Positions 914-63,446 of a DNA stretch of 64,000 bases are shown piece by piece. The DNA lies in the IMG/VR virus record IMGVR_UViG_3300027804_002812, positions 96,001-160,000 of that record; one strand, 5' to 3'. The position numbers and the translations under genes were made by a program. The DNA is from a virus. Lineage: Duplodnaviria > Caudoviricetes. Within the stretch, counting starts at the first letter, position 1. Every line of letters begins with the position of its first letter. Below the pieces are notes generated by a model that was not told the DNA's origin, searched no databases, and saw only the letters and a list, made by a program, of their open reading frames with translations.

Positions 914-921
914 TATAAATA
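914..921 (-). promoter_or_regulatory. TATTTATA motif (putative phage late promoter)
   Basis: 18 nt upstream of ATG 895. Confidence 0.6.
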
Positions 922-978
922 CTACAAAGTTGTACAATTTCCCATAGTTTATCATTAAAAAAAAAAATTGTTCAATTT

Positions 979-1542
979 TCAACAAATTCCTTTGTTTATT
1001 ATTAAAGTTCCACTTAATTGAACAAAAATCGCACCATCAGAAACCGTAAAGAAGTTACCGATTGGTGGGATAGTTAACTCTCTATTTCCATAAACTCTGT
1101 CGCCAACCTCAAGTTCATGAAAAGGTATTGTTGTAAATACCGTGACATTTGCAGGATTTGCGATTTGATTTACCGATTGACAAACATTTTGATACCATCC
1201 ACCGGCGCGTAAATTTCTTTCATATACCGCAGACGGAGTAACGGATGGTGTTGGAGAGTAAGTCGGTGTTGGAGTTTGTGTAATTGATGTTGGGGTTATA
1301 CTTACGGTTGGAGTTACTGATGGAGTGATAGACGGAGTTGGTGTAGCCGTTGGACATAATCCTATGTTTGTAATGTCCAACGGCCCACTATAACTTTCTT
1401 TTACCAAATCTTCTGCACAAACATACTCTGTGTTTAATGGAGATATGGTTCCGACACTTATAATACTAGTACAACCAGTATATCGATAATATCCATTTTC
1501 AACACTATTGTAGTTTATTATTTGGTAATAGTTACATGCCAT
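979..1542 (-). CDS. Cys-containing protein with central Thr/Pro linker, putative virion decoration/fibre protein
   Basis: 187 aa with a PTATPTPSITPSVTPT... linker. Starts MAC like the adjacent gene and is in the same operon. Confidence 0.75.
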   Translation of the reverse strand: MACNYYQIINYNSVENGYYRYTGCTSIISVGTISPLNTEYVCAEDLVKESYSGPLDITNIGLCPTATPTPSITPSVTPTVSITPTSITQTPTPTYSPTPSVTPSAVYERNLRAGGWYQNVCQSVNQIANPANVTVFTTIPFHELEVGDRVYGNRELTIPPIGNFFTVSDGAIFVQLSGTLIINKGIC

Positions 1543-1543
1543 A

Positions 1544-3928
1544 TTATACTTGTGATATTGTTACAATAACTGATGGTGTTGCAGGTTTTGCGTATGGTGT
1601 TGTTTGTACTGGTTCACCTAACAACTCATAGGTAATATCTGCAGAGGCCCAAACAATTTCAAGATAATCGTTAGCATTCATTGATTCCGCAATATTCCAA
1701 GCTGCAACAAGTTTACCGTAAGCACCTTGTTTTGCAACTTGCATTTCCGTATTTGAGTTTGCTAAATCAACACCATTCTTTCTAAACCAAATCGCCACTT
1801 CATCGGTATTACTTGAGGTTTTACTTAGTTGAGCTGAGAATTGAAGGTTATAAACCCCTGTGTTTAATACCACAAATCTTGTACTTGCACTTAATACAAC
1901 ACCGCTAGACAACGTAGTAGTGTTTGCACTCATAACTTGCGGTGTATTAACAGTGCTTAATGGTTGTGTTCCACTATCAAAAAACGCCCCGTAAGATTTT
2001 GTTGTTCCTGAAGGAGATACTCCTGAAGACCCACTAGTTCCTGAAGAACCTGATGTACCTGTAGAACCGCTAGTTCCTGATGAACCAGATGTGCCTGTAG
2101 AACCTGAACTTCCTGAAGAACCGCTAGTTCCTGATGTTCCAGAACTTCCTGAAGAACCGCTAGTTCCTGATGTTCCACTAGATCCAGAAGTCCCACTAGT
2201 TCCTGATGTTCCATTTGTTCCTGATGTTCCAGAACTTCCTGAAGAACCGCTAGTTCCTGATGTTCCAGAACTTCCTGAAGAACCGCTAGTTCCTGATGTT
2301 CCAGAAGTACCACTTGATCCGTCAGTTCCCGAACTACCGCTAGTTCCTGATGTGCCAGAAGAACCATCACCACCAGCGGCCCCCTCTAAATTCACTAACC
2401 ACGTAGAATAACTTCCGGATCCAATAATGCCAGTAACATTAACAACCATATTACCATTTGATGGATTGTAACTCACTACCGTACCAATCATATGGTTTGA
2501 AAGGTCATAGGCAATAATAACGTCTTGTGCAATACTATATCCTAAATTAGTTCCAACTACAAAAGTTCCAGTACTACCTGTTTGAATTGGTAATAAAGTT
2601 GACGATGTTGTTCGATATAAGTCTCCTGCGAGACCGCTAGAACCTGACGTTCCACTTGTACCAGAAGATCCATTAGAACCTGATGTTCCACTTGTTCCTG
2701 ATGAACCAGAAGTACCTGACGTTCCATTTGTACCTGAAGTACCAGAAGTTCCTGACGTTCCATTTGTACCGCTAGTTCCACTCGATCCTGCACCACCAAT
2801 CACTCCAATTGTTCCACCTGTTATTCCAATCGTAATATTATCTGGTCTTACACCTCCAATTTTTGATATAGTCGCGGTCCCAAGATATGCTGTTTCTTGA
2901 ATACTATTGTCACCAAATTTAATTGTAGACCCACTTTGTGGTATAGTTATTCCTGATGGATTTATTATGAAAGATAATGAACCTTGATATTCATTTGGTT
3001 TTGTAGCATAAAATCTGAATTCAGTTGGAGTACTTGTCGCACTGAAGGTACCTAAAGAATACATATCCATAAACGTGTGAGGTAAATCCCCTGGAATACC
3101 GAAACCTGATTCAGTTGTCCAACCTACACCAGCAAATCTTGCAATTGGCCCTACTTTGGTATTTGTTGGAAATTGCGCGGTACCTCCCGCATGTCGACCA
3201 CCAAATTGACTAAATCGTGTGTCTCCATAACTATCGTTAACAATTCTACTTACTTGGTTATCGTGACCAGTCACGTGAATCATTCCACCAGGATTCACAG
3301 GTGGAGCAGAATACCCCCCATCATTTCCTATAATTTCAAAAACCGAAGCATTATTTGGATTTTGGTACGAAGACGTGATAAAAACTTGTCCATTGGGATC
3401 AACTCTAAAAACACCGAGATCCACTGTCTGTCCACTTATTCCTTCGACAATCAAACCACCTGATTGAACCCTCAAAAAATTAAATAAATTACTCAAGGTT
3501 ACGGTATTACCTGAAGGAGAGTCAGGTAATAGTTTCAAACTGGCATTCCCTAAAATAACATCACTCCAAGGATGTTCAACTGAACCCAAAGAATTACCGC
3601 TAAAAAAAGGTAAGAAATTTCCATTAAGAAACATATCTCCATTTCCTGGAATTATGAGTAAATTTTCATTTGTTATACCTGAAATTGTGTTACCCGATAA
3701 AACTATTGCATTTGTATAAATAGATTTTAAGGAATTCAATAAGTCCCCTATTTGGTAAGTATTGTCAGTATCAGGAATCAAATTTTGAACCATAACCCCA
3801 AAAGGGGAACTTTTCCATAAATCCTGAATGTTCATATTATAGGTTACACCACTAGCAACAATTGGAATTAACGAAGTGTTGGTTGATGCTGTTAAGTTAG
3901 GTAATCCTGATATTGGTAAATTAGGCAT
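1544..3928 (-). CDS. Collagen-like (Gly-Thr/Ser-Ser) fibre protein with C-terminal C1q/BclA-like domain
   Basis: Two uninterrupted G-X-Y blocks (GTS/GSS/GTN). The C-terminus has YGAF...GVYNLQFSAQL...NDYLEIVW, typical of C1q/BclA_C beta-sandwich heads. The N-terminus has a PISGLP...IPIV motif seen in fibre proteins. Confidence 0.75.
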   Translation of the reverse strand: MPNLPISGLPNLTASTNTSLIPIVASGVTYNMNIQDLWKSSPFGVMVQNLIPDTDNTYQIGDLLNSLKSIYTNAIVLSGNTISGITNENLLIIPGNGDMFLNGNFLPFFSGNSLGSVEHPWSDVILGNASLKLLPDSPSGNTVTLSNLFNFLRVQSGGLIVEGISGQTVDLGVFRVDPNGQVFITSSYQNPNNASVFEIIGNDGGYSAPPVNPGGMIHVTGHDNQVSRIVNDSYGDTRFSQFGGRHAGGTAQFPTNTKVGPIARFAGVGWTTESGFGIPGDLPHTFMDMYSLGTFSATSTPTEFRFYATKPNEYQGSLSFIINPSGITIPQSGSTIKFGDNSIQETAYLGTATISKIGGVRPDNITIGITGGTIGVIGGAGSSGTSGTNGTSGTSGTSGTNGTSGTSGSSGTSGTSGSNGSSGTSGTSGSSGLAGDLYRTTSSTLLPIQTGSTGTFVVGTNLGYSIAQDVIIAYDLSNHMIGTVVSYNPSNGNMVVNVTGIIGSGSYSTWLVNLEGAAGGDGSSGTSGTSGSSGTDGSSGTSGTSGTSGSSGSSGTSGTSGSSGSSGTSGTNGTSGTSGTSGSSGTSGTSGSSGSSGTSGTSGSSGSSGSTGTSGSSGTSGSTGTSGSSGTSGSSGVSPSGTTKSYGAFFDSGTQPLSTVNTPQVMSANTTTLSSGVVLSASTRFVVLNTGVYNLQFSAQLSKTSSNTDEVAIWFRKNGVDLANSNTEMQVAKQGAYGKLVAAWNIAESMNANDYLEIVWASADITYELLGEPVQTTPYAKPATPSVIVTISQV
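2018..2383 (-). repeat. G-X-Y (GTS/GSS) coding repeat, about 40 triplets
   Basis: Tandem 9-bp-unit repeats such as GTTCCTGAT/GAACCGCTA on the plus strand, encoding GSSGTSGTS... Confidence 0.95.
2623..2796 (-). repeat. G-X-Y (GTS/GTN/GSS) coding repeat, about 18 triplets
   Basis: First collagen-like block of the 794-aa protein. Confidence 0.9.
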
Positions 3929-3941
3929 TTTCTTTTTATTT

Positions 3942-3949
3942 TATAAATA
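3942..3949 (-). promoter_or_regulatory. TATTTATA motif
   Basis: 13 nt upstream of ATG 3928. Confidence 0.6.
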
Positions 3950-3955
3950 TTGTTT

Positions 3956-6391
3956 TTATGTCACAATTATGTTGAACCCATCTTCTTGTTGTATTGTAAA
4001 ATAATCTTCTTGTGCTAAAAAGATAAATCCAGTTGGAGTTGGAGTTTGTGTAAATGTCGGTGTAGGAGTTGGTGTTCCAGTGTTAGTAGGTGTTACGGTT
4101 GGTGTTGGAGTTTTGGTTGCGGTTTGAGTATTAGTTTGGGTTACAGAAGGAGTATTAGTTGGAGTTGTAGTTGATGTTGGAGTTTTGGTTGCAGTTTGAG
4201 TATTAGTTGGGGTTTGGGTATTAGTTGGGGTTACAGAAGGAGTATTAGTTGGAGTTGGTGTAGATGTTTCAGTTGCGGTTGGAGTTTGTCCAACACTTGC
4301 TGTTGGGGTAACTGTTGACGTTTGAGTCACAGTTTGAGAAGGTGTCTGAGTTGGAGTTTCTGTATTTGTTGGAGTTACTGTTGGTGTTGGAGTTTGTGTT
4401 TCTGTAGCGGTCGGAGTTTGTCCAACACTAGCGGTTGGAGTCACACTTGCAGTTTGACTTGGAGTTTGTGTTGGAGTTTGTGTATTTGTTGGAGTTGGAG
4501 TTGTACTCGAAGTTGGGGTCGGACTCGGAAGAATAACAAAACAATCAGGACATTTTGGATCTAATAATCCATATCTTGTTTTTAACAATTTGAAATTATG
4601 CCAAACTTGTGACGCATTCAACGGTTCAACATACATTCTAAACGCACTGACATCACCAATCATACTACCACCAAAATATTCTTCTAACTTAATATGTGTG
4701 GTTAGTCCTGAGTATATTGTATTATCTAAATCGTCAGTTGTTAAACATTCGGGGTCTTGTTGATACGTAATCCCACTAATAGATTCTGGACATCCTCCCG
4801 AGAATGTTAAATTATCTTTAAGACCTTGAGTACCTCCACCCAAAGAAATATTATATCCAACACCAATTTGTTTTTCTCGTTCAACATCTAACAATCTTGG
4901 AATAATTTCTTCAAAGTTCTCGGCAACCATAAACAACTTGCCGTTTACGAATATTTTGAGAGTTCCTAATCTATATTTTTTTTCTTCGGTCCAATTATCA
5001 TTGAATGTAACAATTTCAGTTGTTGCCGGATCGTAAGGTAACTCATGAGTCAGTGGAGGTTCAATCAAACTAACACTATTGTTTGCTGGTGTTGCAGTAT
5101 AAATGGTATCAACAAGAAGACCCAACCCTCCCTTCTCATAAAGGTCACACGTATCTAACCATTGATTTCTTTGAAAGACAGCATCAATTTGAACCCAATG
5201 TTCCAACTGAATATATGGAGTATTTTTACAATCGTCAAAAATTCCTCGTGTTGAACACCATTCTGTAACTGATGTTCCTGTGTGATAAGTTAATCCTGTT
5301 TGACAAGTTCCTGTTGTTTCACAACCTCCAGTTATTGTATAGGTTTTTATACATAATCTCGGATTACCACTATCACCACTTAACCTTAATGAAAGTCCAT
5401 TTGATACTCCATCATATAAAGGATCTTTTTCAGCATATTTGGCGGTTACGCTACAATTACAAGGACAACCGCAATTACAATTCGTTGAAGTACCTCCTGA
5501 TATTTGATAAACTTCTAAACAAGTCGACGCAGTATTTGCTGAACTTGAACATCCACAAGTGTGCATACAAGTTAATCCTGACGTAACTCTTGTATATCCT
5601 GTATCTTGTTTAGGTGACCCATCGGCATAATGGTAGAATTTGTTTTCCGCTCTCGAACCCATATAAAAGAACGTACCTTTATTATTAGGGTATCGATTGT
5701 TCAGTCCTACACTTGTATCTCCTGTCCATCGGTATCTTAACATGAACTCCGCAGTCCATCCTAAAGGAACTCTCTGTGGAAAAATTTGATAATCATATCC
5801 AGGTATTTTATAAAACCCTTGAAAAAACCCACCATTTAGCCGAGCAAAATATCCTACCGCACCACCATCAGTTGCATAGTTCAAATCGTAACTATAAGAA
5901 TCATCATTCCATAGTCGGTTTTGTGTTGTAGTAAATCCTGTGATAGGATGAAGTTTCATTCTCCTATCGTATTTGTATCGACTATATTTGTCTGTATTGT
6001 TTGTGTAAAGCCCTGTAGTTATTTGTATTGTCTCACCTGACATTTTTTTAACCAAGCCATTATCAATACCGGTCAAACCAACATCACATAAGTCAGTAAC
6101 CTTTGGACAAAAGTTAGGGTCAATGTCATCAGGATTCCAATAATTTTCAGAAACAATTACGTCATTATCAAAAGTACATGAACCTGATTGGCATATCGTT
6201 GTACCCGTACTATTGAAATCAAATCTAAATGGCATTCTATTTCCATCGACTTCACCTATTAATAATGGTGAAAAAATTACCTCTTGGTCATAGTCCTTCT
6301 CGTCTGAAGCCAAACAGATATCGGTAATTTCGTTGACAGGTTTAATACCCCAACGTCTAAAATTATACTGATTAATATTTTGATATGCCAT
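3956..6391 (-). CDS. Cys-rich LamG/concanavalin-like domain protein with long C-terminal Thr/Pro repeat
   Basis: LamG-like segments ([36 protein letters not shown]...QVWHNF) and many Cys. The ~160-aa TPT linker includes a 132-bp duplication (near 4281 and 4413). Ends [14 protein letters not shown]. Confidence 0.7.
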
Positions 6392-6420
6392 AAACTAATG
6401 ATAAATACCTTATGTCATAG

Positions 6421-6428
6421 TATTTATA
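6421..6428 (+). promoter_or_regulatory. TATTTATA motif
   Basis: 15 nt upstream of ATG 6444. A TATTTAT copy on the minus strand (6401-6407) serves the divergent gene. Confidence 0.6.
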
Positions 6429-31418: not shown

Positions 31419-31426
31419 TATTTATA
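31419..31426 (+). promoter_or_regulatory. TATTTATA motif
   Basis: 3 nt upstream of ATG 31430. Confidence 0.55.
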
Positions 31427-35632: not shown

Positions 35633-35640
35633 TATTTATA
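35633..35640 (+). promoter_or_regulatory. TATTTATA motif
   Basis: 13 nt upstream of ATG 35654. Confidence 0.6.
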
Positions 35641-38789: not shown

Positions 38790-38818
38790 AATAATAAATA
38801 TACAGTTAAATCAAAATT

Positions 38819-40598: not shown

Positions 40599-40606
40599 TA
40601 TAAATA
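40599..40606 (-). promoter_or_regulatory. TATTTATA motif
   Basis: 14 nt upstream of ATG 40584, just after the MCP terminator. Confidence 0.6.
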
Positions 40607-44096: not shown

Positions 44097-44104
44097 TATA
44101 AATA
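44097..44104 (-). promoter_or_regulatory. TATTTATA motif
   Basis: 24 nt upstream of the scaffold ATG 44072. Confidence 0.6.
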
Positions 44105-45126: not shown

Positions 45127-45165
45127 CTAATCTTTTAAGATAAATATACGGATTTGAATAGTTTG

Positions 45166-45674: not shown

Positions 45675-45682
45675 TATTTATA
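45675..45682 (+). promoter_or_regulatory. TATTTATA motif
   Basis: 14 nt upstream of the bS21 ATG. Confidence 0.6.
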
Positions 45683-45696: not shown

Positions 45697-45888
45697 ATGA
45701 TAATAATAAAAATCACCCAGGGTAATCCTCTTGAGAAAGCTCTCAAGACCCTAAAGTCAAAAGTAATTAAAACAAAACAAAATCAGATTTTATTTGATAG
45801 AAAGCAATATACAAAAAAATCTGTACTTAGAAGAGCACAGATTCTGAAGGCAAAACATATTCAAAGTCTCAAAGACCAATCAAATTGA
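45697..45888 (+). CDS. rpsU: 30S ribosomal protein bS21
   Basis: MIIIKITQGNPLEKALKTLKSKVIKTKQ..L..RK.YTKKSVLRRAQILKA..IQ aligns gap-free with Bacteroidota bS21. Its position inside the head module matches known bS21 phages. Confidence 0.9.
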   Translation: MIIIKITQGNPLEKALKTLKSKVIKTKQNQILFDRKQYTKKSVLRRAQILKAKHIQSLKDQSN

Positions 45889-46578: not shown

Positions 46579-46599
46579 TGTGTCTTTTTCAAATAAATA

Positions 46600-48480: not shown

Positions 48481-48488
48481 TATAAATA
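48481..48488 (-). promoter_or_regulatory. TATTTATA motif
   Basis: 27 nt upstream of the portal ATG. Confidence 0.55.
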
Positions 48489-48489: not shown

Positions 48490-50250
48490 TTATTTAGCAC
48501 CAAATAACCAACCATATTTTTGATAATCTGCTTTACTAGCACCATTATTATTTAGGTTTGGGTCTCTACCCATTTGAGGTACCATTGGATTAAAAAATTC
48601 TGAAGTATTTTTATTCTCATTCACAACTGATGCCCATGAATTTAACATTGCCTTAGTATGGTTAACAACTTTTGTTAATGATTGAAATGATTTTTCTGCA
48701 ATATAAATTGCCATTGATAATCCCATAATACAGTCATCATGTTGACCTTTTTGGTGATCAGGTCTTCCATTTATATAGACGAAGGTATTCATCTCGTTAT
48801 ATGTCCTATGAGAATATATTTTGAATCCATGTCTAACACCTTCTTCAAATGCGGCAATAATTTGAACTCTTTTAGTATTGAAGTTAATTCCAGGAATTCT
48901 GTCATTTATCTTTGGATCCCACTTCCACTTATTAGATGTGTCAACCCCATCAACATAAAGTCCTGGTTGGTATTGTAATTCTTGCATTTTTCTTGCAGTC
49001 GAAACTCCCATACCACCAGTTATATCAATTACACAAAATGCATTGTACATTGTTCCCCATTTATATGCAATCTCAGCTAATACATCTGGAGGAATTTTTC
49101 CAACGTATTCTAATACTTGTTCTCGTTCATTAAAGTCAATAATTTGTATGGATGAAAAATCTTCTGAATCACCACGAGAAACGTCAACACCCATTACATA
49201 CTTGTGACCATTTACAGGTTCCTTGAAAATCCATAAAGCATTACCCATAAGTTTTGCTTGGGGTGTTTGTAATTGATTTTTAGCAATGTTCTGCATCAAA
49301 TCAGAATCGAATACGTTATCACCCGACCCCAAGAAATTACATTCCAATTCTTGAGCAACTTTACGTCGGTCATACTTAAGTTTCTTTACCATCCCCTCGA
49401 ACCATGATGAACAAGGTTTGTAACCCTTTTCAATATAATCCGTAACTATGCCATGGTCTCTTTCGTATGGACTATCTGTACTTAAATCAATAACGGTATC
49501 TATTGGATAATCTTCTCTGTTGAGTAAATAATGAACCAAATCATTTGTTTTGACCATATACAAATCCTTTGTATATCTAGGGTCTCTGTACCAAAACATT
49601 TCTGAGATTTTGAAATCATTCATACCTCTTAATGCTTGGTCGTAGATTTCATAATAGATTGGGTCGTATCCGTTTGGAGTTGATACCACAATAACTTTAC
49701 CACCTGTAGATAGTGATGCCATACAAGCTGACCAGAAGTCACCATCAGCCTCGATAAATGCCGCTTCATCAAAAATAAGAATAGTAGGAGTATAACCTCT
49801 CAACGCATCTTTAGATGTTGCAACAGATTTTACTTCACATCCATTATTGAGTTTGAAATGTCTTTGAGAATTTTTTTCAGCAGAAAATGCTATCCCCACC
49901 CAAGCAGGCCACTGTTCAATGAATCCCCTAATCTTATTTGCCATTTCAACTGAGGTATCCAATTTGTTGGCAATGATTAGAATCTTTTCAGGTTTTTCCT
50001 TTCTAGCAAAGGCGAGTTTTTTTGAAGACCAAGCGGCGGTCACGGTTGACACACCTGCTTGTCTATATTTTAAGGCAATATTTTCGTTGTATTTTTCGTA
50101 GTCCTCGAGTAGTGAAACTTGGTCGGGAAAAAGTTCTAACGGAACATACTTTGAAACTGTATTATCGTATGTCTGTAAATAAGTACGAAGTGCATAAGGG
50201 GTATTCCTCATACACTTCGTATATTCTATAATTAATTGTTCTTTATTCAC
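48490..50250 (-). CDS. gp17: terminase large subunit
   Basis: LKYRQAGVST, LRGYTPTILIFDEAAF, VSTPNG, QELECNF, MGVDVSRG, HDDCIM. Confidence 0.95.
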   Translation of the reverse strand: MNKEQLIIEYTKCMRNTPYALRTYLQTYDNTVSKYVPLELFPDQVSLLEDYEKYNENIALKYRQAGVSTVTAAWSSKKLAFARKEKPEKILIIANKLDTSVEMANKIRGFIEQWPAWVGIAFSAEKNSQRHFKLNNGCEVKSVATSKDALRGYTPTILIFDEAAFIEADGDFWSACMASLSTGGKVIVVSTPNGYDPIYYEIYDQALRGMNDFKISEMFWYRDPRYTKDLYMVKTNDLVHYLLNREDYPIDTVIDLSTDSPYERDHGIVTDYIEKGYKPCSSWFEGMVKKLKYDRRKVAQELECNFLGSGDNVFDSDLMQNIAKNQLQTPQAKLMGNALWIFKEPVNGHKYVMGVDVSRGDSEDFSSIQIIDFNEREQVLEYVGKIPPDVLAEIAYKWGTMYNAFCVIDITGGMGVSTARKMQELQYQPGLYVDGVDTSNKWKWDPKINDRIPGINFNTKRVQIIAAFEEGVRHGFKIYSHRTYNEMNTFVYINGRPDHQKGQHDDCIMGLSMAIYIAEKSFQSLTKVVNHTKAMLNSWASVVNENKNTSEFFNPMVPQMGRDPNLNNNGASKADYQKYGWLFGAK

Positions 50251-54090: not shown

Positions 54091-55338
54091 TTAATTATTC
54101 AATCCTTGGAATCCTCCTAGTGATATTGCGTTTAGTTGAACAATAACTTCATCCCCATCTTCACTCGTCATAACAGAATAAGGCACAGTTGATCCGGATG
54201 GTGCAGTACCTCCACTAAATGAACCTAACATACCGATAGTATATTCATATTGTTGGTTTACTTCAATCACAAATCCAAGAGTTACACTTGGGGTAGGTGT
54301 GGAAGTTGGAGTTGACGCTGGAGTTCCTGTTGGTGTTGGTGTAACAGGTGCAGTTGCACTTGGTGATGCAGTGATACTTGGTGTTGGTGTTCTCGTAGCA
54401 GTATTTGTCGGTGTTGCGGTCTGTGTATTCGTAACAGTCGGTGTTGGAGTGTTAGTAGATGTGGAGGTGTTTGTAGGTGTTTGAGTTTGTGTTGCAGTAT
54501 TTGTAGGTGTTTGGGTTGTGGTTGGAGTTGGAGTTACCGCAGCAGTTCCAGTTTGAGTTGGTGTAGGTGTTTGAGTTGAGGTTGTGGTTGGAGTTGGAGT
54601 GTTTGATGCAGTAGGTGTTGGCGTAATGTCTCCAAGACATTCAACACAAGTATTCCACGGTCCGTTAAAAATTGTAACAGTTGCAGCTAATGGAGTTTCA
54701 AATCCATCACCAACTGTAAAACACTGATGACTTCCATCCGGTAATGATAAGTCATATATTTTATTATTAATTAAACTACCAATGAATTTGGCGTAAAATG
54801 CTTCTCCTCCCGCACATGGAGTTATAATATAATATGTAAACGGTAGTGGGGATTTTGTTGGTGTAACAGTATTAGTTGGGGTTACCGTAGGAGTTGACGT
54901 ATTTGTTGAAGTTACAGTTGGTGTTGGAGTTTTAGTCGCAGTATTTGTTGGTGTTGCAGTATTTGTTGGTGTTACAGTTGGTGTTGGGGTTTTAGTTGTC
55001 GTCTGAGTATTAGTAACAGTTTGAGTATTAGTTGGCGTTGCGGTATTCGTTGGAGTCTGTGTGTTGGTTGGAGTCTGTGTAGGAGTTGCAGTATTAGACG
55101 CAGTTGGTGTTGGCGTAACATCTCCAAGACATTCAACACAACTATTCCATGGCCCATTAAATATTGTTGCAGTCGCAGCTAAAGGAGTATCGATACCAGG
55201 TTCAATTGTATAACATCCGTTAGAACCCCCTCCGATGATTAAGTCGTAGATATCACCTACAATAAGATTTTCTTCTGACTTTATGTATAAAGTATTAGAA
55301 GAATTACAAGAAGACGCAATATAATAATTAAAAGCCAT
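54091..55338 (-). CDS. Thr/Pro-repeat (mucin-like) protein with duplicated Cys-containing domain
   Basis: Two copies of YYI..C...IYDL....C.T...TPLAAT.TIFNGPWN.CVECLGD, each followed by a long TPTPT linker. Confidence 0.85.
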   Translation of the reverse strand: MAFNYYIASSCNSSNTLYIKSEENLIVGDIYDLIIGGGSNGCYTIEPGIDTPLAATATIFNGPWNSCVECLGDVTPTPTASNTATPTQTPTNTQTPTNTATPTNTQTVTNTQTTTKTPTPTVTPTNTATPTNTATKTPTPTVTSTNTSTPTVTPTNTVTPTKSPLPFTYYIITPCAGGEAFYAKFIGSLINNKIYDLSLPDGSHQCFTVGDGFETPLAATVTIFNGPWNTCVECLGDITPTPTASNTPTPTTTSTQTPTPTQTGTAAVTPTPTTTQTPTNTATQTQTPTNTSTSTNTPTPTVTNTQTATPTNTATRTPTPSITASPSATAPVTPTPTGTPASTPTSTPTPSVTLGFVIEVNQQYEYTIGMLGSFSGGTAPSGSTVPYSVMTSEDGDEVIVQLNAISLGGFQGLNN

Positions 55339-55351: not shown

Positions 55352-55359
55352 TATAAATA
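55352..55359 (-). promoter_or_regulatory. TATTTATA motif
   Basis: 13 nt upstream of ATG 55338. Confidence 0.6.
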
Positions 55360-55391: not shown

Positions 55392-56135
55392 TCAGTCTTC
55401 CAATTTTCTCTCAATAGAAAGTTCTTTATCGAGAGCTTTATTTGACATATCAAACAATTTTTCAATGTGTCCCGACCTTCTCAAAAACTTAAAAACCAAG
55501 TTTTCATACGAAAGTTCACCTTCTTTTTCCAAACCTGATTTTCTATAATTTTTTAATTTTTCTTTGATTGAATCTATCAATTTGATATCATCTTCCGAAC
55601 TTTCGGATTCAATTACCTTATCAATTTTTTCAGTCCAGTTTTTGATTTTCTTTTCCAAAACTGATTTATCAATCTCGTTTTCTAACTGTTTAGGTTTTGT
55701 CACCCATTCATCATTCATTACTGAATAAACACCTGTTGCGAAATGTGGCTCTTCATTATCTTGTGCATATAATTCGACATCATACCCAAATATTTTAATA
55801 TCGTGTTTGTCGTTGAATACTTGTTTCTTTAGATTATACAATTCTTTATATAAAGGAGCTTCATCTTCGAATTGTTGTAAATCTACAAGAATGTGTAAAT
55901 CAAAATCAGAATATTCCGACCAATTAAAATTAGCTAATGATCCAGTTAAAACAATATCTTCAACAAAAACATCTTCACCAAGATAATCGATGAATTTTTC
56001 GGCAATCTTCAATAAAGCGTTTTTCACCTTCGGAACCATCTTTGCTTTCTGTGGGTTCTCAGGGTTCTCCCAAATTTTTGGATTGAGAGTTTCTTGTACT
56101 GAAAAACTATTAAGGATTTTTTGAAAATTATTCAT
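55392..56135 (-). CDS. Pol-beta superfamily nucleotidyltransferase
   Basis: IVLTGSLANFNWSEYSDFDLHILVD (GS...DxD), third acidic residue in DVELY, ENLVFKFLRR. Confidence 0.8.
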   Translation of the reverse strand: MNNFQKILNSFSVQETLNPKIWENPENPQKAKMVPKVKNALLKIAEKFIDYLGEDVFVEDIVLTGSLANFNWSEYSDFDLHILVDLQQFEDEAPLYKELYNLKKQVFNDKHDIKIFGYDVELYAQDNEEPHFATGVYSVMNDEWVTKPKQLENEIDKSVLEKKIKNWTEKIDKVIESESSEDDIKLIDSIKEKLKNYRKSGLEKEGELSYENLVFKFLRRSGHIEKLFDMSNKALDKELSIERKLED

Positions 56136-56146
56136 CTAGATAAATA

Positions 56147-56389
56147 CTATAACTTCTTATACTTGAACGTCTTTGATATGTCCGTAGTAAAAAACTTTCC
56201 TTGCGACTCCGACATTCTGAATTTTGTATACACTTGGTGAGGTACATCTTCGTACTCATATTTGAATCCATTATTAAATTCTACTACAAGTTTTTTTGTT
56301 TCCGTGTCGTATTCTGTTTTTTTAATGTTGGAAGATTTTATTTCATTAATAATCTTCGTCCCCTGAATCTCTTCTTTCAGTATCGCCAT
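56147..56389 (-). CDS. KTSC domain protein
   Basis: SSNIKKTEYD...LVVEFNNG..YEY.DVP..VY..F..SESQGKFF. Confidence 0.9.
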   Translation of the reverse strand: MAILKEEIQGTKIINEIKSSNIKKTEYDTETKKLVVEFNNGFKYEYEDVPHQVYTKFRMSESQGKFFTTDISKTFKYKKL

Positions 56390-56678
56390 CTCTAAGTGGT
56401 GTTAATTCGTTTATTTTTAATAGTTGAGGCATGATAAAATCCGAAACTTCATCTTTGGTCACTTCAAATCCGTAATTCTGAAGAAACCTAACCACGTTAT
56501 TAAATTCATTATTGAATTTTTCTTGTAAACTCATCATCTTAAAAGTATATGTCGGAGGATTATCTAGTTCTGATTCACTGAATCCCATCTCCTGTAAATG
56601 TTGTCTTAATCTCAAATAAATGTCCAAGAGATCTCTTAAATGAGAAGAATATGTTAAATATTTTTCAAAAGGTTTCAT
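56346..56678 (-). CDS. hypothetical phage protein
   Basis: 110-aa ORF with TATTTATA 3 nt upstream. Confidence 0.7.
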   Translation of the reverse strand: MKPFEKYLTYSSHLRDLLDIYLRLRQHLQEMGFSESELDNPPTYTFKMMSLQEKFNNEFNNVVRFLQNYGFEVTKDEVSDFIMPQLLKINELTPLRDGDTERRDSGDEDY

Positions 56679-56720
56679 AAATATAAATATTATAAAAACT
56701 TTTTGTATCTAAAGTACCAC

Positions 56721-57309: not shown

Positions 57310-57314
57310 TTTAT

Positions 57315-57602
57315 TTATAACTTATGGTTTACAGTACAAAAAACTTTTTTAGTTGCACCTCTCAATAATCCATCAATCTTAAGGAGAGGAGTTTTTATTT
57401 GATTATGTACTTCTTGATATTCTTCAACTTCGGAATCTTTTGGAACGAGTTTTCCGGCCTTACAAACATCATTGTAATATTTTTCTTTAAGTTTTCTATC
57501 CAATTTTAAGAATCTTACTTTGGAGTCGGTTCCTGTTTCGGCGATTACTTTTTTAACCAATCTTGTTAAATCAGATTCGGTTAATCTTATAATTTTTTTC
57601 AT
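57315..57602 (-). CDS. hypothetical protein with LTESDL leader
   Basis: MKKIIRLTESDLTRLVKKVIAE, plus IDGLLRGAT, which resembles a PG-binding-1 'DG..G..T' remnant. Confidence 0.8.
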   Translation of the reverse strand: MKKIIRLTESDLTRLVKKVIAETGTDSKVRFLKLDRKLKEKYYNDVCKAGKLVPKDSEVEEYQEVHNQIKTPLLKIDGLLRGATKKVFCTVNHKL

Positions 57603-57606: not shown

Positions 57607-57614
57607 TATAAATA
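57607..57614 (-). promoter_or_regulatory. TATTTATA motif
   Basis: 4 nt upstream of ATG 57602, just after a terminator. Confidence 0.55.
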
Positions 57615-57624
57615 TCCACAGAAT

Positions 57625-57663
57625 AAAAAAAAATCCCCACCTTTTGAGTGGGGATTTTTTTTT
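57625..57663. terminator. bidirectional-type intrinsic terminator
   Basis: AAAAAATCCCCAC-cttttga-GTGGGGATTTTTT. Confidence 0.85.
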
Positions 57664-58033
57664 ACTTTAGTTTTTTGAGTTGGTCTCGAATCTCGATTGA
57701 TTTTTCAAAATTTTGTTCTTCGATTGACTTTTTAAGTTCCTCTTCAAGTTTATCGATTTCCTTTTGGTTTGATTCCAACTTTTTAATTTGGTCTCTCAAT
57801 TCAACCGCTTTTTCAAAATCCTCATTTTCAATTGCGATTTCAAGTTGTTGTTTCAGATTTTTTGAAGTTGGGTTTGTTTTAGTGTTGTCGTAGTAATACG
57901 TAGTTATTTTCATTGTTCCATCTTCTGAAACTTTAGTTTGAGTTTTCCACTCACCGTTAGATGGGGTTAATTGATTGAACATTTCGTCGAATGTTCTAAA
58001 GATGTCGTTATAAGATCTTCTGTTACCAAACAT
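57662..58033 (-). CDS. tandem UVR (UvrB/UvrC motif) protein, McsA-like adaptor candidate
   Basis: LKQQLEIAIENEDFEKAVELRDQIKKLE and LEEELKKSIEEQNFEKSIEIRDQLKKLK. Confidence 0.85.
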   Translation of the reverse strand: MFGNRRSYNDIFRTFDEMFNQLTPSNGEWKTQTKVSEDGTMKITTYYYDNTKTNPTSKNLKQQLEIAIENEDFEKAVELRDQIKKLESNQKEIDKLEEELKKSIEEQNFEKSIEIRDQLKKLK

Positions 58034-58212: not shown

Positions 58213-60225
58213 ATGAACGACTTAATGGACGACGAAGACAAAATGATGAGTAAAAAACAGAAGTCAGGAGATACCTCGACACCTGTTCTAGACAATTTCA
58301 GTAGAGATTTGAATAAACTTGCAGAGGCGGGTAAGTTGGACCCTGTCATCGGAAGAGACCGAGAGATTCTACGAATCGCACAAATTCTTTCCCGAAGAAA
58401 GAAAAATAATCCAATTATTCTTGGTGAACCTGGTTGTGGTAAAACTGCAATTGTTGAAGGTTTGGCGATGAAAATTGTCAATGGTGATTGTCCTCGTAAT
58501 CTTTTGGATAAAAGATTGGTTAACCTTGACCTAACTTCAGTTGTTGCTGGTACAAAGTATCGTGGACAATTTGAAGAAAGAATGAAGGTTATCATCGAAG
58601 AACTTCAGGCTAATCCTAACATCATCGTATTCATTGATGAAATTCATACTTTGGTTGGCTCAGGTAATTCTTCAGGTTCGATGGATGGTTCCAACATTTT
58701 CAAACCAGCACTATCTCGTGGTGAACTACAAGTAATCGGTGCAACCACTTTGGATGAGTTCAGAAAGAACATCGAAAAAGATGGGGCATTGGAACGTAGA
58801 TTCCAAAAAGTTATTGTTGACCCATCTACAGTGACTGAGACAATCCAAATTTTGAAGAATGTTCGGGACAAATACGAAACATATCACAAAGTGACTTATT
58901 CCGATGAAGTCATTGAAACTTGTGTTAAGTTGGCGGATAGATATATCACCGACCGTGAATTCCCTGACAAAGCATTCGACATCTTGGATGAAGTTGGTGC
59001 TAGAATGCAGACCGAACTTAAGGTTCCTGAGGCTATCGAAGAGTTGAAGCGTAAAGCTGCAGAACTTAAACAACAGAAGTTGGATGTAGTTAAAAAACAG
59101 AATTACGAACAAGCCGCACAACTCAGAGACAAAGAGAAAAAGTTGTTGGACAAATTGGACCAAGAAAAACAAAAATTCGAGGAACAAATGTCCAAAGACA
59201 AACAAAAGGTCGGAATGGATGATGTTTATGATGTTGTTTCAAACATGACTAAAATCCCTGTTAACAAAATGTCTACGGATGATACCAAAGCGTTGTTGAA
59301 CTTGGACAAACACATTGTTGGAACTGTCATTGGTCAGGATGCCGCGGTTATCAAGGTTGCAAAATCTATCAAGAGAAACCGACTAGGTATCAAAGATCCA
59401 AATCGTCCGATTGGTTCATTCGTTTTCTTGGGTTCAACAGGTGTTGGTAAAACTCACTTAGCAAAACAACTTGCAAAGGAAATGTTTGGAAGTGAGGACG
59501 CGCTAATCCGTGTGGATATGTCTGAGTACCAAGAGAAACATACCGTATCCAAATTGGTTGGAGCACCTCCAGGCTATGTTGGATACGAAGAAGGTGGATT
59601 GTTGACTGAGAAAGTTAAGAACAAGCCTTACTCTGTTATCTTGTTTGATGAGGTTGAGAAAGCTCACAAAGATGTATTCACCGTATTACTTCAAATCTTG
59701 GACGATGGTCACGTTACGGATAGTTTGGGTAGAAAGATTAACTTCAAGAATACCCTAATTATCTTAACATCAAATCTCGGAGTTAAAAAACTACAAGACT
59801 TCGGAACTGGTATTGGATTCTCATCAAGTACCTATGGTAACGAAGAGGCGAAGAAAGAAATCTTGATGAAAGAAATGAAGAATTTCTTTTCTCCTGAGTT
59901 TATCAACCGTATCGATGACACCATTGTTTTCAATTCTCTATCTCAAGAGGATATCAAGAAAATCACCGACATCGAACTTAAGAAGTTGATGAAGCGTCTT
60001 GACGAAATGAAGTATAAGATTACTTATGATGAATCACTTTTGAATTACCTCTCAAAAATCGGATATGATGAGGTATACGGTGCAAGACCACTCAAGAGAG
60101 CGATTCAGGATAAAGTTGAAGACTTATTATCTGAAGAAGTTCTGACCGACAAAATTATAGTAGGAAAAACCTACGTGATTAAAGTCGAAGATGAAGTAGT
60201 CAAAGTAGTCAAGAAAGGTCGGTAA
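58213..60225 (+). CDS. clpC: ClpC-type AAA+ ATPase lacking the N-terminal Clp-repeat domain
   Basis: [24 protein letters not shown]-type M domain, [30 protein letters not shown] ClpP-docking loop, YGARPL. Confidence 0.92.
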
Positions 60226-60255: not shown

Positions 60256-60256
60256 A

Positions 60257-60264
60257 TATTTATA
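60257..60264 (+). promoter_or_regulatory. TATTTATA motif
   Basis: 3 nt upstream of ATG 60268, just after the clpC terminator. Confidence 0.55.
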
Positions 60265-60267
60265 GAC

Positions 60268-60876
60268 ATGAGTAATTTTTCCCGACTATTAGACAAATTC
60301 AAAAATTCATTCCCAAAAGACTTACAATCAAAAGTTGATGTAATTGAAAATTTTGTTGTGGGATATATTCAAGAAAATGACCTCAATGTAAAGTTCTTGA
60401 ATTCATGTTCCGCAGGGTTCAAAGGAGTTAGGACAAGAGACCAAATTATTATTTGTTCTCCAATCAGTATGGAAACCATAGGAGACTTTTTATATACCAT
60501 ATTTCACGAAATCAGGCATGAGCAACAGATTAGAGATTTGAAAATGTTAAATCCTTTAACGGATTTTGATTTAGAGGATTTCGAGGCTCTTTACGAACAA
60601 TACTGGAATATGGAGTTGGATGCCGATAAATTCGCAAAAGAAATGGTGGCAAAACTGGTAATCAAATTGGGGATTCCAATCGATATTGCAAAAAAATTAT
60701 TTTCGTTGTCACCATACGTTCAGCAATATCCAACCATGTCAAACATGGTTCGTGGAGGTATTCAACAAATTATTAATGACATTAAGAGAATAAAAAAATC
60801 GGGTGGAGAATATACTGATATTCAAGACCACCCGGTAGTACAAAGACACATCGATAAGTTAGAGGATTTTATTTAA
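60268..60876 (+). CDS. putative zincin metallopeptidase (HExxH)
   Basis: TIFHEIRHEQQ and downstream ELDADKFA (ImmA/IrrE-like pattern). Confidence 0.6.
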   Translation: MSNFSRLLDKFKNSFPKDLQSKVDVIENFVVGYIQENDLNVKFLNSCSAGFKGVRTRDQIIICSPISMETIGDFLYTIFHEIRHEQQIRDLKMLNPLTDFDLEDFEALYEQYWNMELDADKFAKEMVAKLVIKLGIPIDIAKKLFSLSPYVQQYPTMSNMVRGGIQQIINDIKRIKKSGGEYTDIQDHPVVQRHIDKLEDFI

Positions 60877-61508
60877 TCTATCAACTTCAATATTATCGTA
60901 TAAAAAGTTGATTTACCTTCCCACCCGTAAGAATCATAATCGACTGATTCAACTGAAAAATGTTGATTAGATAACACACGAATATCTTCTTCGGTTACAC
61001 CATCGCAGTTTTCAATTAATACAATTTTCCCATTTGGGTTTAGGTATCTATGTACAGATTCGAAAAACTTTTTATGAAATTGCATGTCATAGTCCAAAGA
61101 GATTAATTTTTCTTCACTACTTCTATAACCATTAGGTCTTTCAGTTTTGAAATGTGGGGGGTTTGATACGATAGTGTCAAACTTATTGGAGTCCTCCATT
61201 GAATCAAAACAATCGGACTGAATAAACTCAACTTTCAGATTATTAAATCGATTTGTTGTTTCTATACTATCTCGAACCTCGGGATTAATATCTGACAAAA
61301 CTAATCTATTTGCTTTATTATATTTCAATAAAGTGTAACCGATGAATCCAGGCCCTGAACATATTTCCAATACGTCCCCTTGGTCTTGAATTTTATTTAT
61401 AATATCGGATTTGGTAATGGCATTAAATCCAAAAGTAGTGCCACCTCCGTCAAACCTTTTTTCGTAGAATACTGAAAGATCGATGATATTGAATAATTCC
61501 ATAATCAA
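60873..61508 (-). CDS. class I SAM methyltransferase (HemK/MTS-like, NPPH)
   Basis: VLEICSGPGFIG, LSDINP, SDCF, DTIVSNPPHF. Confidence 0.8.
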   Translation of the reverse strand: MIMELFNIIDLSVFYEKRFDGGGTTFGFNAITKSDIINKIQDQGDVLEICSGPGFIGYTLLKYNKANRLVLSDINPEVRDSIETTNRFNNLKVEFIQSDCFDSMEDSNKFDTIVSNPPHFKTERPNGYRSSEEKLISLDYDMQFHKKFFESVHRYLNPNGKIVLIENCDGVTEEDIRVLSNQHFSVESVDYDSYGWEGKSTFYTIILKLID

Positions 61509-62338
61509 AAGGGATGAAATTGTCCTCTTGGCACCGACTTTTTGAAATGTAATTTATACCCTAACTCGTCAATCATTTTTCTTCCCATTTCTATCCCATT
61601 GAATACGTCCTCAATAACGACATATTCTTCTGGCGTATGATAATCATAATATCCAATAGAAAAATTAATACAAGAAAAATCAAATTTACTTCTCAAGGCA
61701 TAAACGTCTGTATATGGGTGAACCATATATTGCATTTGTTCATTAATCATTCCTTCAGTCAAAACCTTATCAATTTTTTCGAAGAACTCGGTACCTCTGT
61801 CAAATAACATCTGTCCAAAACATTTTTCAGTAATCATCCAATTTTCGGGGGCATCGAACTGAATACCATATCCAACATTTTCAAAAAATTTGGAATCGGC
61901 AGCTTTTGAGCCATGACATCCAGTTTCTTCTGAAACGAAGAATGCCGCTTTAAGGTATGGTAATTCTTTAAGTAAAGTTAAACAGGCAAACACACCACAT
62001 TTGTCGTCTCCTCCAATGCCTGTCGGTCTCTCGTTATCATTAAATGCTTTCAATGCTGGCTTCAATTCACCTTGGGCATTTTTCAACATCATTTCTTTTA
62101 CGTTGATTGTATCGATATGGTGAACTGTATCTGTATGTGATATTACACAAGGAAAATAAAAATCTTCAGGAAGGTCTGTTGTTCCTTGTTTGGTTGCATA
62201 GATATTCATTGTGTCATCGACATAATGTTCTATATTGTTTTCGGTTAACCAATTAACCAAAAATTCAACCATACGATGTTCTTGGTAAGTTTTTGTGGGT
62301 ACGCTCAGAACTTCTTTGAGCAAAGTTATATCTTTCAT
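61505..62338 (-). CDS. M28/M20/M42-type Zn peptidase
   Basis: SHTDTV, GGDDKCG, SEETGCHGS, QFDA, YHTPEE metal-ligand motifs. Confidence 0.8.
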   Translation of the reverse strand: MKDITLLKEVLSVPTKTYQEHRMVEFLVNWLTENNIEHYVDDTMNIYATKQGTTDLPEDFYFPCVISHTDTVHHIDTINVKEMMLKNAQGELKPALKAFNDNERPTGIGGDDKCGVFACLTLLKELPYLKAAFFVSEETGCHGSKAADSKFFENVGYGIQFDAPENWMITEKCFGQMLFDRGTEFFEKIDKVLTEGMINEQMQYMVHPYTDVYALRSKFDFSCINFSIGYYDYHTPEEYVVIEDVFNGIEMGRKMIDELGYKLHFKKSVPRGQFHPF

Positions 62339-62358
62339 TCTATAAAGATATAAATAAA

Positions 62359-63402
62359 TTAGATTTCATCCAAACTAAATAATGAAGGTTGGTATAATAA
62401 ATTGTAAAAATTTTGTTCACTTAAAGATACTGTCTTTTGTTTTAATCCTTTCGACAATGTCACTATTATTTTCATTTCAGGAAACTTAAATCCTTCAATT
62501 TTGAACCTTATTTCTTTTTTGGGGTCTTTTGGTAAAAAGTAATATTCTTCTTGTCTAAATTTTTTCAAAATTCTCGAAGTCATATCAGTGAAATCTTTGA
62601 AACTAACTCCCTCTTCTTCTCCCTCTTCTTGAATCGTATCCAAAATTTCAGTAAAAATTGTGTTTGCGACTCTGTTGAAGCCTAAAGAGTCAAACTCATT
62701 GGGGTCTTCATAAGCATAATAATCTTCTTCCCAACCGCCTGGTGCTTCTTTTCTACTAAAAATCCTTTCTAATAATTCTTTCAAAGAAATATGGAGTTCA
62801 CCTTCTTCAATATACAACGCTATCAAGTCTGCTACCGTAATTCTGAAACCTTCACTATATGCGTCAATACCCAACTCAGCAAAATACTCATCCATTTCTT
62901 TATTTATCTCTCTTGCAAGTGATGTCTTGAATGCATGATTTTTTTCGTCTACGTAATCTTCAATAACGTATTTTATTTTTTTTCCGAAATTTTCCATTAA
63001 TTTTTCAGATAACTCCTTTCTGTATTCGTCATCTTCAAAGTTGACTTTCATAGGAAGTATGGCGTTGGAAATTTCAGACAATAGCTCCTTATTTTCTTCG
63101 TCCAAAGTGTAGTAAAACCCATACCCCACCATAAAATCTTCTACTGCGGAATAGTGATCCAAAAATTCATACTCAGAATAAGGTGCATTCACCATTTGAT
63201 AAAACCAAACATCATCATCCCGCATTCCCAACATTTCTAAAAAATCTTGTTGATTGCGAAATTCAACATCAATAACACTCTGACCAGGCGTACTTCTGTC
63301 TTCTCTCATGTACGAGAATAGCTTATCAGAGGCTAAAAGTTCATCTTTGGTTATTTTGTGTTTAGCGTAATTTCTTAATGACCTGAAAGTTTCATAATTC
63401 AT
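62359..63402 (-). CDS. hypothetical acidic phage protein
   Basis: 347-aa ORF from ATG 63402 (MNYETF), with TATTTAT 7 nt upstream. Confidence 0.75.
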   Translation of the reverse strand: MNYETFRSLRNYAKHKITKDELLASDKLFSYMREDRSTPGQSVIDVEFRNQQDFLEMLGMRDDDVWFYQMVNAPYSEYEFLDHYSAVEDFMVGYGFYYTLDEENKELLSEISNAILPMKVNFEDDEYRKELSEKLMENFGKKIKYVIEDYVDEKNHAFKTSLAREINKEMDEYFAELGIDAYSEGFRITVADLIALYIEEGELHISLKELLERIFSRKEAPGGWEEDYYAYEDPNEFDSLGFNRVANTIFTEILDTIQEEGEEEGVSFKDFTDMTSRILKKFRQEEYYFLPKDPKKEIRFKIEGFKFPEMKIIVTLSKGLKQKTVSLSEQNFYNLLYQPSLFSLDEI

Positions 63403-63438
63403 ACTACAAATAAATATCAATTTAGTTGGATTCGGAAA

Positions 63439-63446
63439 TATTTATA
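63439..63446 (+). promoter_or_regulatory. TATTTATA motif
   Basis: Upstream of the tmRNA, a non-coding gene. Confidence 0.55.

Follow-up and report, generated by a model that had tools for sequence, protein, structure and literature searches.

A conserved TATTTAT box at the heads of gene runs in a T4-like phage is probably the core of a phage-specific promoter class

Introduction

Within the 326,291-bp virus record IMGVR_UViG_3300027804_002812 (33.7% G+C), a short motif with the conserved core TATTTAT recurs immediately before genes, and this motif, hereafter the box, is the subject of the present analysis. The analysis is centered on a stretch of 64,000 nucleotides (nt), record bases 96001-160000, which we refer to as the window, and extends to the whole record and to related phages. 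The box stands at the heads of same-strand gene runs and is missing at operon-internal genes. We consider it probable, albeit with considerable room for doubt, that TATTTAT forms the -10-type core of a class of promoters specific to the phage and read via a phage sigma factor, and that the shortest distances between box and start codon yield leaderless messages.

In the mechanism that we propose, the box would head approximately 90 transcription units, including nearly all virion units, with no need for a -35 element. Within the window, these would be the units of the tail fibre, of a gene in the scaffold position together with the capsid gene, of the prohead protease, of the portal, of a terminase block, of a 25-kb glycan operon and of several small genes. 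Another class, with fewer units and including tRNA genes, would carry the host Bacteroidota box TAnnTTTG. The reader would be the host RNA polymerase core combined with a phage sigma factor, for which the best candidate is encoded at 30664-31410. The octamer would occupy the register of the host -7 box (approximately -12 to -5), with transcription starting 4-5 nt beyond it. Where an ATG follows the box by 3-5 nt, the mRNA would begin at or next to the A of AUG and would thus be leaderless; at the remaining sites it would carry an A-rich leader of roughly 7-16 nt without a Shine-Dalgarno sequence.

Sequence and Enrichment of the Box

Enrichment was assessed genome-wide in the 45 nt before gene starts, with dinucleotide shuffles of those same segments serving as the null. 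The octamer TATTTATA occurs there 47 times as against 4.5±2.1 times in the shuffles, and always in the orientation of the gene. This comparison had been named as a check by the original prediction, and it confirms the enrichment more strongly than had been stated. The orientation of the T4 late promoter, TATAAATA, is not clearly enriched on the sense strand (12 copies vs. 5.6), and those 12 copies stem partly from back-to-back promoter pairs. When octamers of every kind are scanned without bias over the 40 nt ahead of each start, ATATTTAT and TATTTATA come out on top (46 vs. 1.9 expected), with the reverse complement of TATTTATA seen 9 times. Across the genome there are 97 exact copies of TATTTATA; 48 sit no more than 40 nt upstream of a same-strand start, and 55 are intergenic, though intergenic DNA constitutes only 6% of the genome. 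Both strands of the window together hold 22 exact copies, compared with 8.3±2.8 in dinucleotide shuffles (largest shuffle value, 17), so that the chance expectation is about 8 and not the 20 or so once estimated. The 15 exact copies originally listed are all present and each is oriented with the next gene; six TATTTAT variants likewise exist, at 6400, 38793, 45139, 46592, 56139 and 63409 (the minus-strand numbers given earlier were one off), as does a counter-oriented copy at 57312.

The conserved core is the heptamer TATTTAT, found 76 times in the last 30 nt before starts where 3.2 copies are expected. It is sharply defined, with exact copies 24-fold enriched and single-mismatch variants at most 5-fold. 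Over 89 sites the sixth position is always A, and the eighth is A at 48 sites, T at 29, C at 11 and G at a single one; the base preceding the heptamer is seldom T. The usual form of the box is (A/G)TATTTAT(A/T). Information content is approximately zero from -40 to -17 relative to the box, and no -33 or -35 element is conserved upstream of these 89 sites. Downstream, the first few bases are variable and an A-rich stretch begins at the fourth, such that bases 4-7 after the octamer are A in 68-72% of cases at the 60 long-gap sites. A scan for E. coli-type sigma-70 promoters returned 81 sites vs. 76 in shuffles and hence no signal, and TGACATAA, which lies near three promoter regions, is not significantly enriched (8 copies vs. 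4.7 expected).

Position Relative to Terminators and Start Codons

A strict hairpin and T-run ends 3-12 nt before the box at 14 of the 89 sites, as compared with 12 of 303 other genes, which bears out the earlier remark that boxes follow terminators. The clearest case lies behind the capsid gene, where a hairpin and T-run at 40645-40618 is succeeded by the box at 40606-40599 and by an ATG at 40584. That copy had seemed to be internal to an open reading frame (ORF); the first ATG of this ORF falls within the capsid-gene terminator, however, and the true start is 40584.

The distance from the octamer to the ATG ranges overall from 3 to 38 nt and is distinctly bimodal: 14 sites have a gap of 3 nt, 10 of 4, 4 of 5, 1 of 6, none of 7, 2 of 8, none of 9, 1 of 10, and 44 of 11-19. 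The two gap classes that had been proposed are therefore present, at 3-5 and 10-19 nt, with gaps of 6-9 nt nearly absent. The geometry of the short class, with the ATG 3-5 nt after the box, is seen at 29 of the 89 sites. Paralogous small proteins have N-terminal residues in common when counted from these ATGs, which are therefore the true starts. Outside the window, at 229-238 kb on the minus strand of the genome, lies a tandem array of small paralogous genes, each with its own terminator (of the CCCCAACCCC type or a GGTGGGG hairpin), a TATTTAT box and a start 3-19 nt further on; several of the encoded proteins have the common N-terminus M-x-x-(I/L)-I-(T/S)-E.

Where transcription would begin can be approached through the host. 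The -7 box of Flavobacterium johnsoniae, TAHHTTTG, occupies -12 to -5, and transcription begins 4-5 nt beyond it (PMC6847099). Placed in this register, the phage octamer matches at T-12, A-11, T-8 and T-6, and departs at -7 (A for T) and at -5 (A or T for G). The start site would then coincide with the A of the ATG at a 4-nt gap and fall within one base of it at gaps of 3 and 5 nt. The T4 register (-13 to -6) would set the start inside the ATG at gaps of 3 or 4 nt, suggesting that the register here is 1-2 nt tighter; start codons 3-4 nt after the box thus argue for a register nearer -12/-11 to -5/-4. The idea that the 3-5 nt class would imply leaderless mRNAs is supported, and the near absence of gaps of 6-9 nt fits with selection against very short leaders.

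Conservation of the Box in Related Phages

Conservation was followed in 80 loci of relatives with 80-96% identity in the capsid protein, counting distinct orthologous upstream regions. For seven box-bearing genes of the window, the box is kept in 194/194 upstream regions whereas the flanks diverge freely (Table 1); before gene 31430, the 3-nt gap is preserved in addition in 19/19. Thirteen genes without a box have one in only 9/300 upstream regions of relatives; the figures are 0/55 for the capsid gene and 0/18 for the terminase gene. The box is real and widespread, and it is functional as judged by this conservation test.

One copy behaves differently. That at 45675, before the gene for ribosomal protein bS21, is present as originally listed but is kept as TATTTAT in 5/30 relatives only. 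In most relatives a TTGTC...GATATTTG/C pair stands there instead, approximately 6 nt short of the ATG; in a few, TATTTAT takes the place of the second element. This looks like promoter turnover. The TTGTC...GATATTTG/C pair, at its distance from the bS21 ATG, would itself give a near-leaderless message.

The box is also in use in a cultured Flavobacterium phage, vB_FspM_immuto (hereafter immuto), whose capsid protein is 42% identical. Here TATTTATA precedes starts 23 times vs. 1.0 expected, including those of terminase, portal, sheath and fibre genes, and the gaps again form two classes, one of 1-4 nt and one of at least 10 nt, gaps of 5-9 nt being absent. A second class in immuto, TATATTTAG, precedes small early-region genes. 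Between 72000 and 78000 of the immuto record, early-region genes each follow GTTGC, some 15 nt and then TATATTTAGGTATCAATAATTAAAA; ATATTTAG is found 18 times genome-wide vs. 0.7 expected, and this element is likely an early promoter class with one inserted A relative to the plain host consensus. Two distant contigs with relatives of the candidate sigma (31-35% identity) have TATTTAT boxes beside those genes. Rhodothermus phage RM378 is without the box, its late-region starts tending, by eye only, to follow ATTTAA or TATTTAA.

The Candidate Sigma Factor and Other Components of the Transcription Machinery

The original prediction had proposed the ORF at 30664-31410 as a late sigma factor of a T4-like phage. 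Its membership in the sigma-70 family holds, on the grounds of its predicted fold and of its region 2.3 residues; its resemblance to gp55 is weak. The ORF itself has a weak Sigma70_r2 match and a match to phrog_234 (the gp55 family) at E 1e-3. It belongs to a family with no named domains that numbers 1,174 clusters (50% identity) at E<=1e-3. With an alignment of 52 members, hhalign relates the family to T4 gp55 at 51% probability (E 1.5e-4, 84 columns); 14 of the 52 match phrog_234, the best at E 7.5e-6. A profile search of the Protein Data Bank gave SigA region 2 at E 0.005 and gp55 (7d7c_F) at E 0.38. Six near-invariant residues (K104, Y106, S107, Y108, G110 and T111) align with SigA region 2.3. 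The AlphaFold model of the protein has a pLDDT of 89, and in searches with Foldseek and VIA the top 50 rows are all sigma factors. Model residues 25-126 superpose on sigma region 2 with an rmsd of 2.6-3.0 Å over 93-98 residues (Z 8.9-9.6), and residues 25-248 align with two-domain sigmas at Z 9-11, for example sigma-E 6jbq_F (182 residues, Z 9.0). From sequence and model together we conclude that the protein is of the sigma family.

That it reads the box is favored by co-occurrence. Phage immuto has both the box and a homologue of the candidate (E 1e-33), and has no Sigma70_r2 match at E<=1. The order of sigma gene, box and small gene is likewise found in immuto and in the two distant contigs. 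The small gene that follows the sigma gene (31430-31798 here; 116-134 amino acids (aa) where complete) occurs in four divergent lineages and has no family match; one counterpart copy (L089) is cut by the contig end, and the box lies between sigma gene and small gene in three of the four lineages, not in the P0208 contigs. The small gene could encode a partner of the sigma factor, such as a co-activator or an anti-sigma factor.

T4 gp55 as a single query found no match in the genome, nor did a phrog_12791 search; with the sigma ORF as tblastn query, the INPHARED phage collection yielded none at E 1e-3, though the profile finds the immuto homologue. By hhalign, the annotated sigma factor of RM378 is not a relative of the family. 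A search for the gp45 C-terminal family gave no match in the genome, with a control that performed poorly, and the absence of a match to the T7-type RNA polymerase (PF00940) is uninformative in that its control gave none either. Searches for a phage-encoded beta or beta' subunit of RNA polymerase, with valid controls, gave no match, from which it follows that the phage relies on the core enzyme of its host.

Host-Type Boxes and the tmRNA-Like RNA

Host-type TAnnTTTG boxes precede about 14 other units of the phage. Such boxes also precede three tRNA genes, at a distance of 6-12 nt from the mature 5' end, and a fourth is some 45 nt before tRNA-Met; the TATTTAT box is found at none of the tRNA genes of the phage. 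There are no intermediate forms between the two classes.

A copy of the box before a tmRNA had been taken as an argument for a role in transcription. A tmRNA-like RNA is indeed present at 63466-63882, with a 5' end of GGGGGUGA, a 3' end of CCUCCACCA and a terminator behind it, and with an apparent tag reading frame that ends, unusually, in ...SVVTA; ARAGORN made no tmRNA call there. The argument itself is weak, as the host-type box TACATTTG intervenes: the TATTTATA copy at 63439 lies two bases upstream of it, and the distance from TACATTTG to the RNA is that seen at tRNA genes. TACATTTG is likelier to be the promoter of this RNA than is the 63439 copy.

Relation to Known Promoters

T4 late promoters have the non-template strand TATAAATA and the template strand TATTTATA (PMC7892883). 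Their box lies at -13 to -6, with an AT-rich stretch downstream (PMC2988020), and is read by gp55 together with gp33 and the gp45 sliding clamp (PMC2988020, PMC7892883). The resemblance to the present case is considerable: a T4-type phage (gp23, gp20), an AT-only box of about 8 bp at -10 that precedes virion genes, no conservation at -35, AT-rich sequence after the box, and the involvement of a phage protein with a sigma region-2 domain. The differences are equally plain. The non-template strand here reads TATTTAT(A/T/C) and not TATAAATA or its near variant NATAAATA, and the box also heads non-virion units; gp55 comprises 185 aa with region 2 and a helix-loop-helix, whereas the candidate here has 248 aa and its model aligns over both halves. 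That TATTTATA should be the exact reverse complement of TATAAATA, a central point of the original prediction, is probably a coincidence, as the degenerate eighth base breaks the relation at 41/89 sites. Read forwards, the TATTTAT box differs from the T4 box at only two central bases.

The sigma-A promoter of Bacteroidota has a -7 box TAnnTTTG (TAHHTTTG) and a weak -33 TTTG (PMC6847099). It belongs to the same host phylum, its box is also an octamer starting with TA that has T-12, A-11, T-8 and T-6 in common with the phage box, its 4-5 nt to the start agree with the short-gap class, and its upstream positions are weakly AT-rich. It differs in that the phage box always has A at -7 and has G at -5 in 1/89 sites, leaving 4/6 key positions matched. 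Matching the phage box to the host -7 box, in register as well as in spacing, is probably a more economical account than the T4 complement.

For the leaderless class, the Thermus phage phiYS40 offers a parallel, as its middle and late mRNAs are reportedly leaderless, with 5' ends mapped by experiment. Both are large phages with many late transcripts starting at the start codon, here by prediction from the box alone; host phylum, promoter sequence and phage lineage are all different.

Whether the promoter class should be called late is only partly borne out. Virion units do carry the box, but it also heads the 25-kb sugar and glycan operon and precedes the DNA polymerase gene. This family-B polymerase gene (genome 87985-90774, minus strand, outside the window) has a TATTTATA box 62 nt before its ATG, and the resulting leader would be of unusual length here. 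In T4, a leader of that kind is where gp43 acts to repress its own translation.

Overall, the element belongs to the same broad kind as known systems, a -10-only phage promoter plus a phage sigma factor, and would add to them the box itself, an unnamed sigma family and a large putative leaderless class.

Weighing the Proposed Mechanism Against Alternatives

Several observations sit uneasily with a phage sigma factor encoded at 30664-31410 that reads the box and yields leaderless mRNAs. Expression evidence bears little on it: four freshwater metatranscriptome runs match parts of 38.5-58.4 kb, and span the capsid unit (~40.5-44.5 kb), only as assembled contigs, which are blind to starts, ends, strand and level. 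In F. johnsoniae, mRNAs mostly carry leaders, 87% of them longer than 10 nt (PMC6847099), as against a third of phage units that would be leaderless, and efficient leaderless translation is not established in these hosts. The box before bS21 lacks conservation, as described. All box-bearing genomes infect Bacteroidota or are so predicted, such that a host factor is compatible with the co-occurrence of box and sigma. The structural Z-scores of 9-11 are within the chance range for helical proteins (Z below about 13), and the sequence link of the candidate to gp55 is weak. Moreover, the sigma gene comes last in a unit with a box (6421) at its own head, leaving its first expression unexplained; autoregulation plus read-through is an assumption, and a search of the glycan operon for a TAnnTTTG box that could provide early expression gave scattered intragenic matches, none convincing. 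Finally, a second phage sigma factor of 265 aa (genome 281274-282071, minus strand, outside the window) could be the reader.

This last point leads to the rival account that fares best, although we regard it as rather unlikely: that the box is a promoter with another reader, either the sigma-70-like protein 281274-282071 or host sigma-A re-targeted, as in T4 middle transcription, through a small protein of the phage, with 30664-31410 serving another promoter class or role. The second sigma has regions 1.2, 2 and 4, and its unit stands behind the host-type box TATATTTG, which would permit early synthesis, whereas the position of the 30664-31410 gene behind a TATTTATA box is awkward for the first factor of a cascade; the matches of the box to key positions of the host -7 box point the same way. 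Against another reader stand immuto, which has the box and a 30664-31410 homologue yet no Sigma70_r2 match, the lack of a conserved -33/-35 element, and the clean separation from the host class, with G as the eighth base in a single site and position 6 always A.

A second rival would have the motif act on the mRNA, as a 5' untranslated region (5'-UTR) element UAUUUAU that favors translation, for instance on ribosomes carrying the phage bS21. The phage does encode bS21, which in such phages has been proposed to select phage transcripts (PMC9723584), and the motif lies near start codons in a host phylum that does not use Shine-Dalgarno sequences. We nevertheless hold this to be improbable. The internal genes with the heaviest translation, those for capsid and terminase, have no box before them, the distance from box to ATG varies from 3 to 38 nt, and boxes stand directly behind terminators; immuto has the box and no bS21, and a 3-nt gap would need an upstream promoter, of which none is visible.

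It is extremely improbable that the copies represent antisense firing from T4 late promoters TATAAATA, or that the AT-richness of intergenic DNA produced the pattern. Intergenic DNA here is indeed AT-rich, and TATTTATA does match the T4 non-template box in reverse complement; yet local dinucleotide shuffles fall far short of the copies seen, sense-strand TATAAATA is scarcely raised and owes part of its count to back-to-back pairs, the eighth base breaks the complement relation, antisense transcripts would at once run into terminators and convergent gene ends, and conservation tracks the downstream gene.

Returning to a promoter read by the 30664-31410 sigma factor, a bolder extension can be drawn, though its parts jointly seem to us unlikely: that T4-like phages of Bacteroidota have exchanged gp55, gp33 and the clamp for an autoregulated two-domain sigma resembling the extracytoplasmic function (ECF) kind that reads a re-tuned host -7 box, with a third of late messages leaderless and with the phage bS21 re-programming host ribosomes in favor of leaderless or short-leader mRNAs.

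Genome Context and Features of the Window

The description of the genome as that of a T4-like phage is borne out by a gp23-type capsid gene and a gp20-type portal gene in the window. More specifically, it fits the clade of T4-like "bS21 phages" of freshwater Bacteroidota, because it measures 326 kb and is of freshwater (lake) origin, and because its bS21 gene, set among the terminase, portal, protease and capsid genes, runs opposite to them. Flavobacterium-type bacteria are the probable hosts. By capsid protein, the nearest phages are an uncultured huge phage, Flavobacterium phage immuto, a Microcystis phage and Rhodothermus phage RM378, and megablast of 21 kb of the window against the INPHARED collection gave no match. 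Shine-Dalgarno sequences are absent at gene starts in the window. Phages of the bS21 clade show high expression of bS21 and structural genes in lake metatranscriptomes (PMC9723584). The phages of Chen et al. (2022; PMC9723584) are of the same clade, freshwater and alike in bS21 placement; the text of that study is without the words promoter, motif, sigma, leaderless, UTR and tmRNA, and the promoter box, sigma family and leaderless class are not described there. Full-text literature searches in the contexts of promoter, late promoter, Flavobacterium phage and gp55 found no published description of the motif.

The box sites of the window are collected in Table 1 together with the principal genes. 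The same-strand run 6444-31410, headed by the box at 6421, consists of sugar-nucleotide and glycosyltransferase genes with the sigma gene last. Its glycan cluster (6444-30664, plus strand) comprises about 25 kb of overlapping same-strand genes, which is very large for a phage, and encodes two NAD epimerases/dehydratases, a UDP-glucose/GDP-mannose dehydrogenase, GT2/GT4 and GT10 (fucosyltransferase-like) glycosyltransferases and a zinc alcohol dehydrogenase. The gene 42501-44072 occupies the scaffold position and has no functional assignment; the capsid gene behind it has no box of its own, nor do the terminase gene and its neighbors, and the box at 55352 probably heads a unit that extends to the large terminase gene. 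A full-length double AAA+ chaperone of the ClpB/ClpA type is encoded at 58213-60225 on the plus strand (phrog_4871, E 4e-243; AAA_2, AAA_lid_9, ClpB_D2-small), with no TATTTAT box directly upstream.

Table 1. Box sites and principal features of the window; the last column gives the share of distinct orthologous upstream regions of relatives that carry the box
Feature	Position	Strand	Context or match	Box in relatives
TATTTATA box	914..921	-	18 nt before ATG of gene 2-895	
Tail-fibre gene with collagen repeats	1544-3928	-	Behind box at 3942	
TATTTATA box	3942..3949	-	13 nt before collagen-repeat tail-fibre gene	
TATTTATC box	6400..6407	-	8 nt before gene 3956-6391; half of a divergent promoter pair	
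TATTTATA box	6421..6428	+	15 nt before gene 6444; heads run 6444-31410	
Candidate reader, divergent sigma-70-family protein, 248 aa	30664..31410	+	Sigma-2 domain and C-terminal helical domain	
TATTTATA box	31419..31426	+	Directly behind sigma gene; 3 nt before ATG of gene 31430-31798; putative leaderless class	19/19
TATTTATA box	35633..35640	+	13 nt before gene 35654-37156	27/27
TATTTATT copy	38793..38800	-	3 nt before GTG at 38789; function uncertain	
TATTTATA box	40599..40606	-	After capsid-gene terminator; 14 nt before ATG 40584 of OmpA-domain gene (39472-40584)	18/18
Major capsid gene, gp23-type	40664-42454	-	Pfam Gp23	
TATTTATA box	44097..44104	-	24 nt before gene 42501-44072; heads unit that includes capsid gene	41/41
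Prohead protease gene	44410-45126	-	phrog_207	
TATTTATC box	45139..45146	-	12 nt before prohead protease gene	36/36
TATTTATA copy	45675..45682	+	14 nt before bS21 gene; lineage-specific, doubtful	5/30
bS21 gene	45697-45888	+	Opposite strand inside head-gene block; PF01165, E 2e-7	
TATTTATT box	46592..46599	-	13 nt before gene 45880-46578	30/30
Portal gene, gp20-type	46600-48453	-	Pfam Portal_T4	
TATTTATA box	48481..48488	-	27 nt before portal gene	23/23
Large terminase gene	48490-50250	-	No box of its own	
TATTTATA box	55352..55359	-	13 nt before gene 54091-55338	
TATTTATC box	56139..56146	-	3 nt before ATG of gene 55392-56135; putative leaderless class	
TATTTATA box	56682..56689	-	3 nt before ATG of gene 56346-56678; putative leaderless class	
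TATTTATA box	57607..57614	-	After two-way terminator 57624-57664; 4 nt before ATG of gene 57315-57602; putative leaderless class	
TATTTATA box	60257..60264	+	Directly after hairpin and T-run; 3 nt before ATG of gene 60268-60876; putative leaderless class	
TATTTATA box	62349..62356	-	10 nt before peptidase gene 61505-62338	
TATTTATT box	63409..63416	-	6 nt before ATG (63402) of gene 62359-63402	
TATTTATA copy	63439..63446	+	19 nt before tmRNA-like RNA	
Host-type box TACATTTG	63449-63456		Between 63439 box and tmRNA-like RNA; 9 nt before RNA 5' end	
tmRNA-like RNA	63466-63882	+	Rfam tmRNA model 1-374, 38.4 bits (below 47-bit threshold), E 8e-14	

Significance

The box provides a simple, testable rule for locating transcription units in phages of Bacteroidota that are abundant and widespread in freshwater and marine environments; a single sigma query retrieved thousands of near-identical proteins. 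The analysis also points to a large sigma family that has no name in Pfam or PHROGs. With respect to promoter evolution, the phage box could have arisen from the host box through two changed positions with the register kept. The predicted leaderless class would be a large one in a phylum whose initiation is unusual, in that Shine-Dalgarno sequences are not used and bS21 hides the anti-Shine-Dalgarno sequence, and this prediction links to the role of the phage-encoded bS21. A cultured pair with the same box, Flavobacterium sp. LMO8 and phage immuto, already exists.

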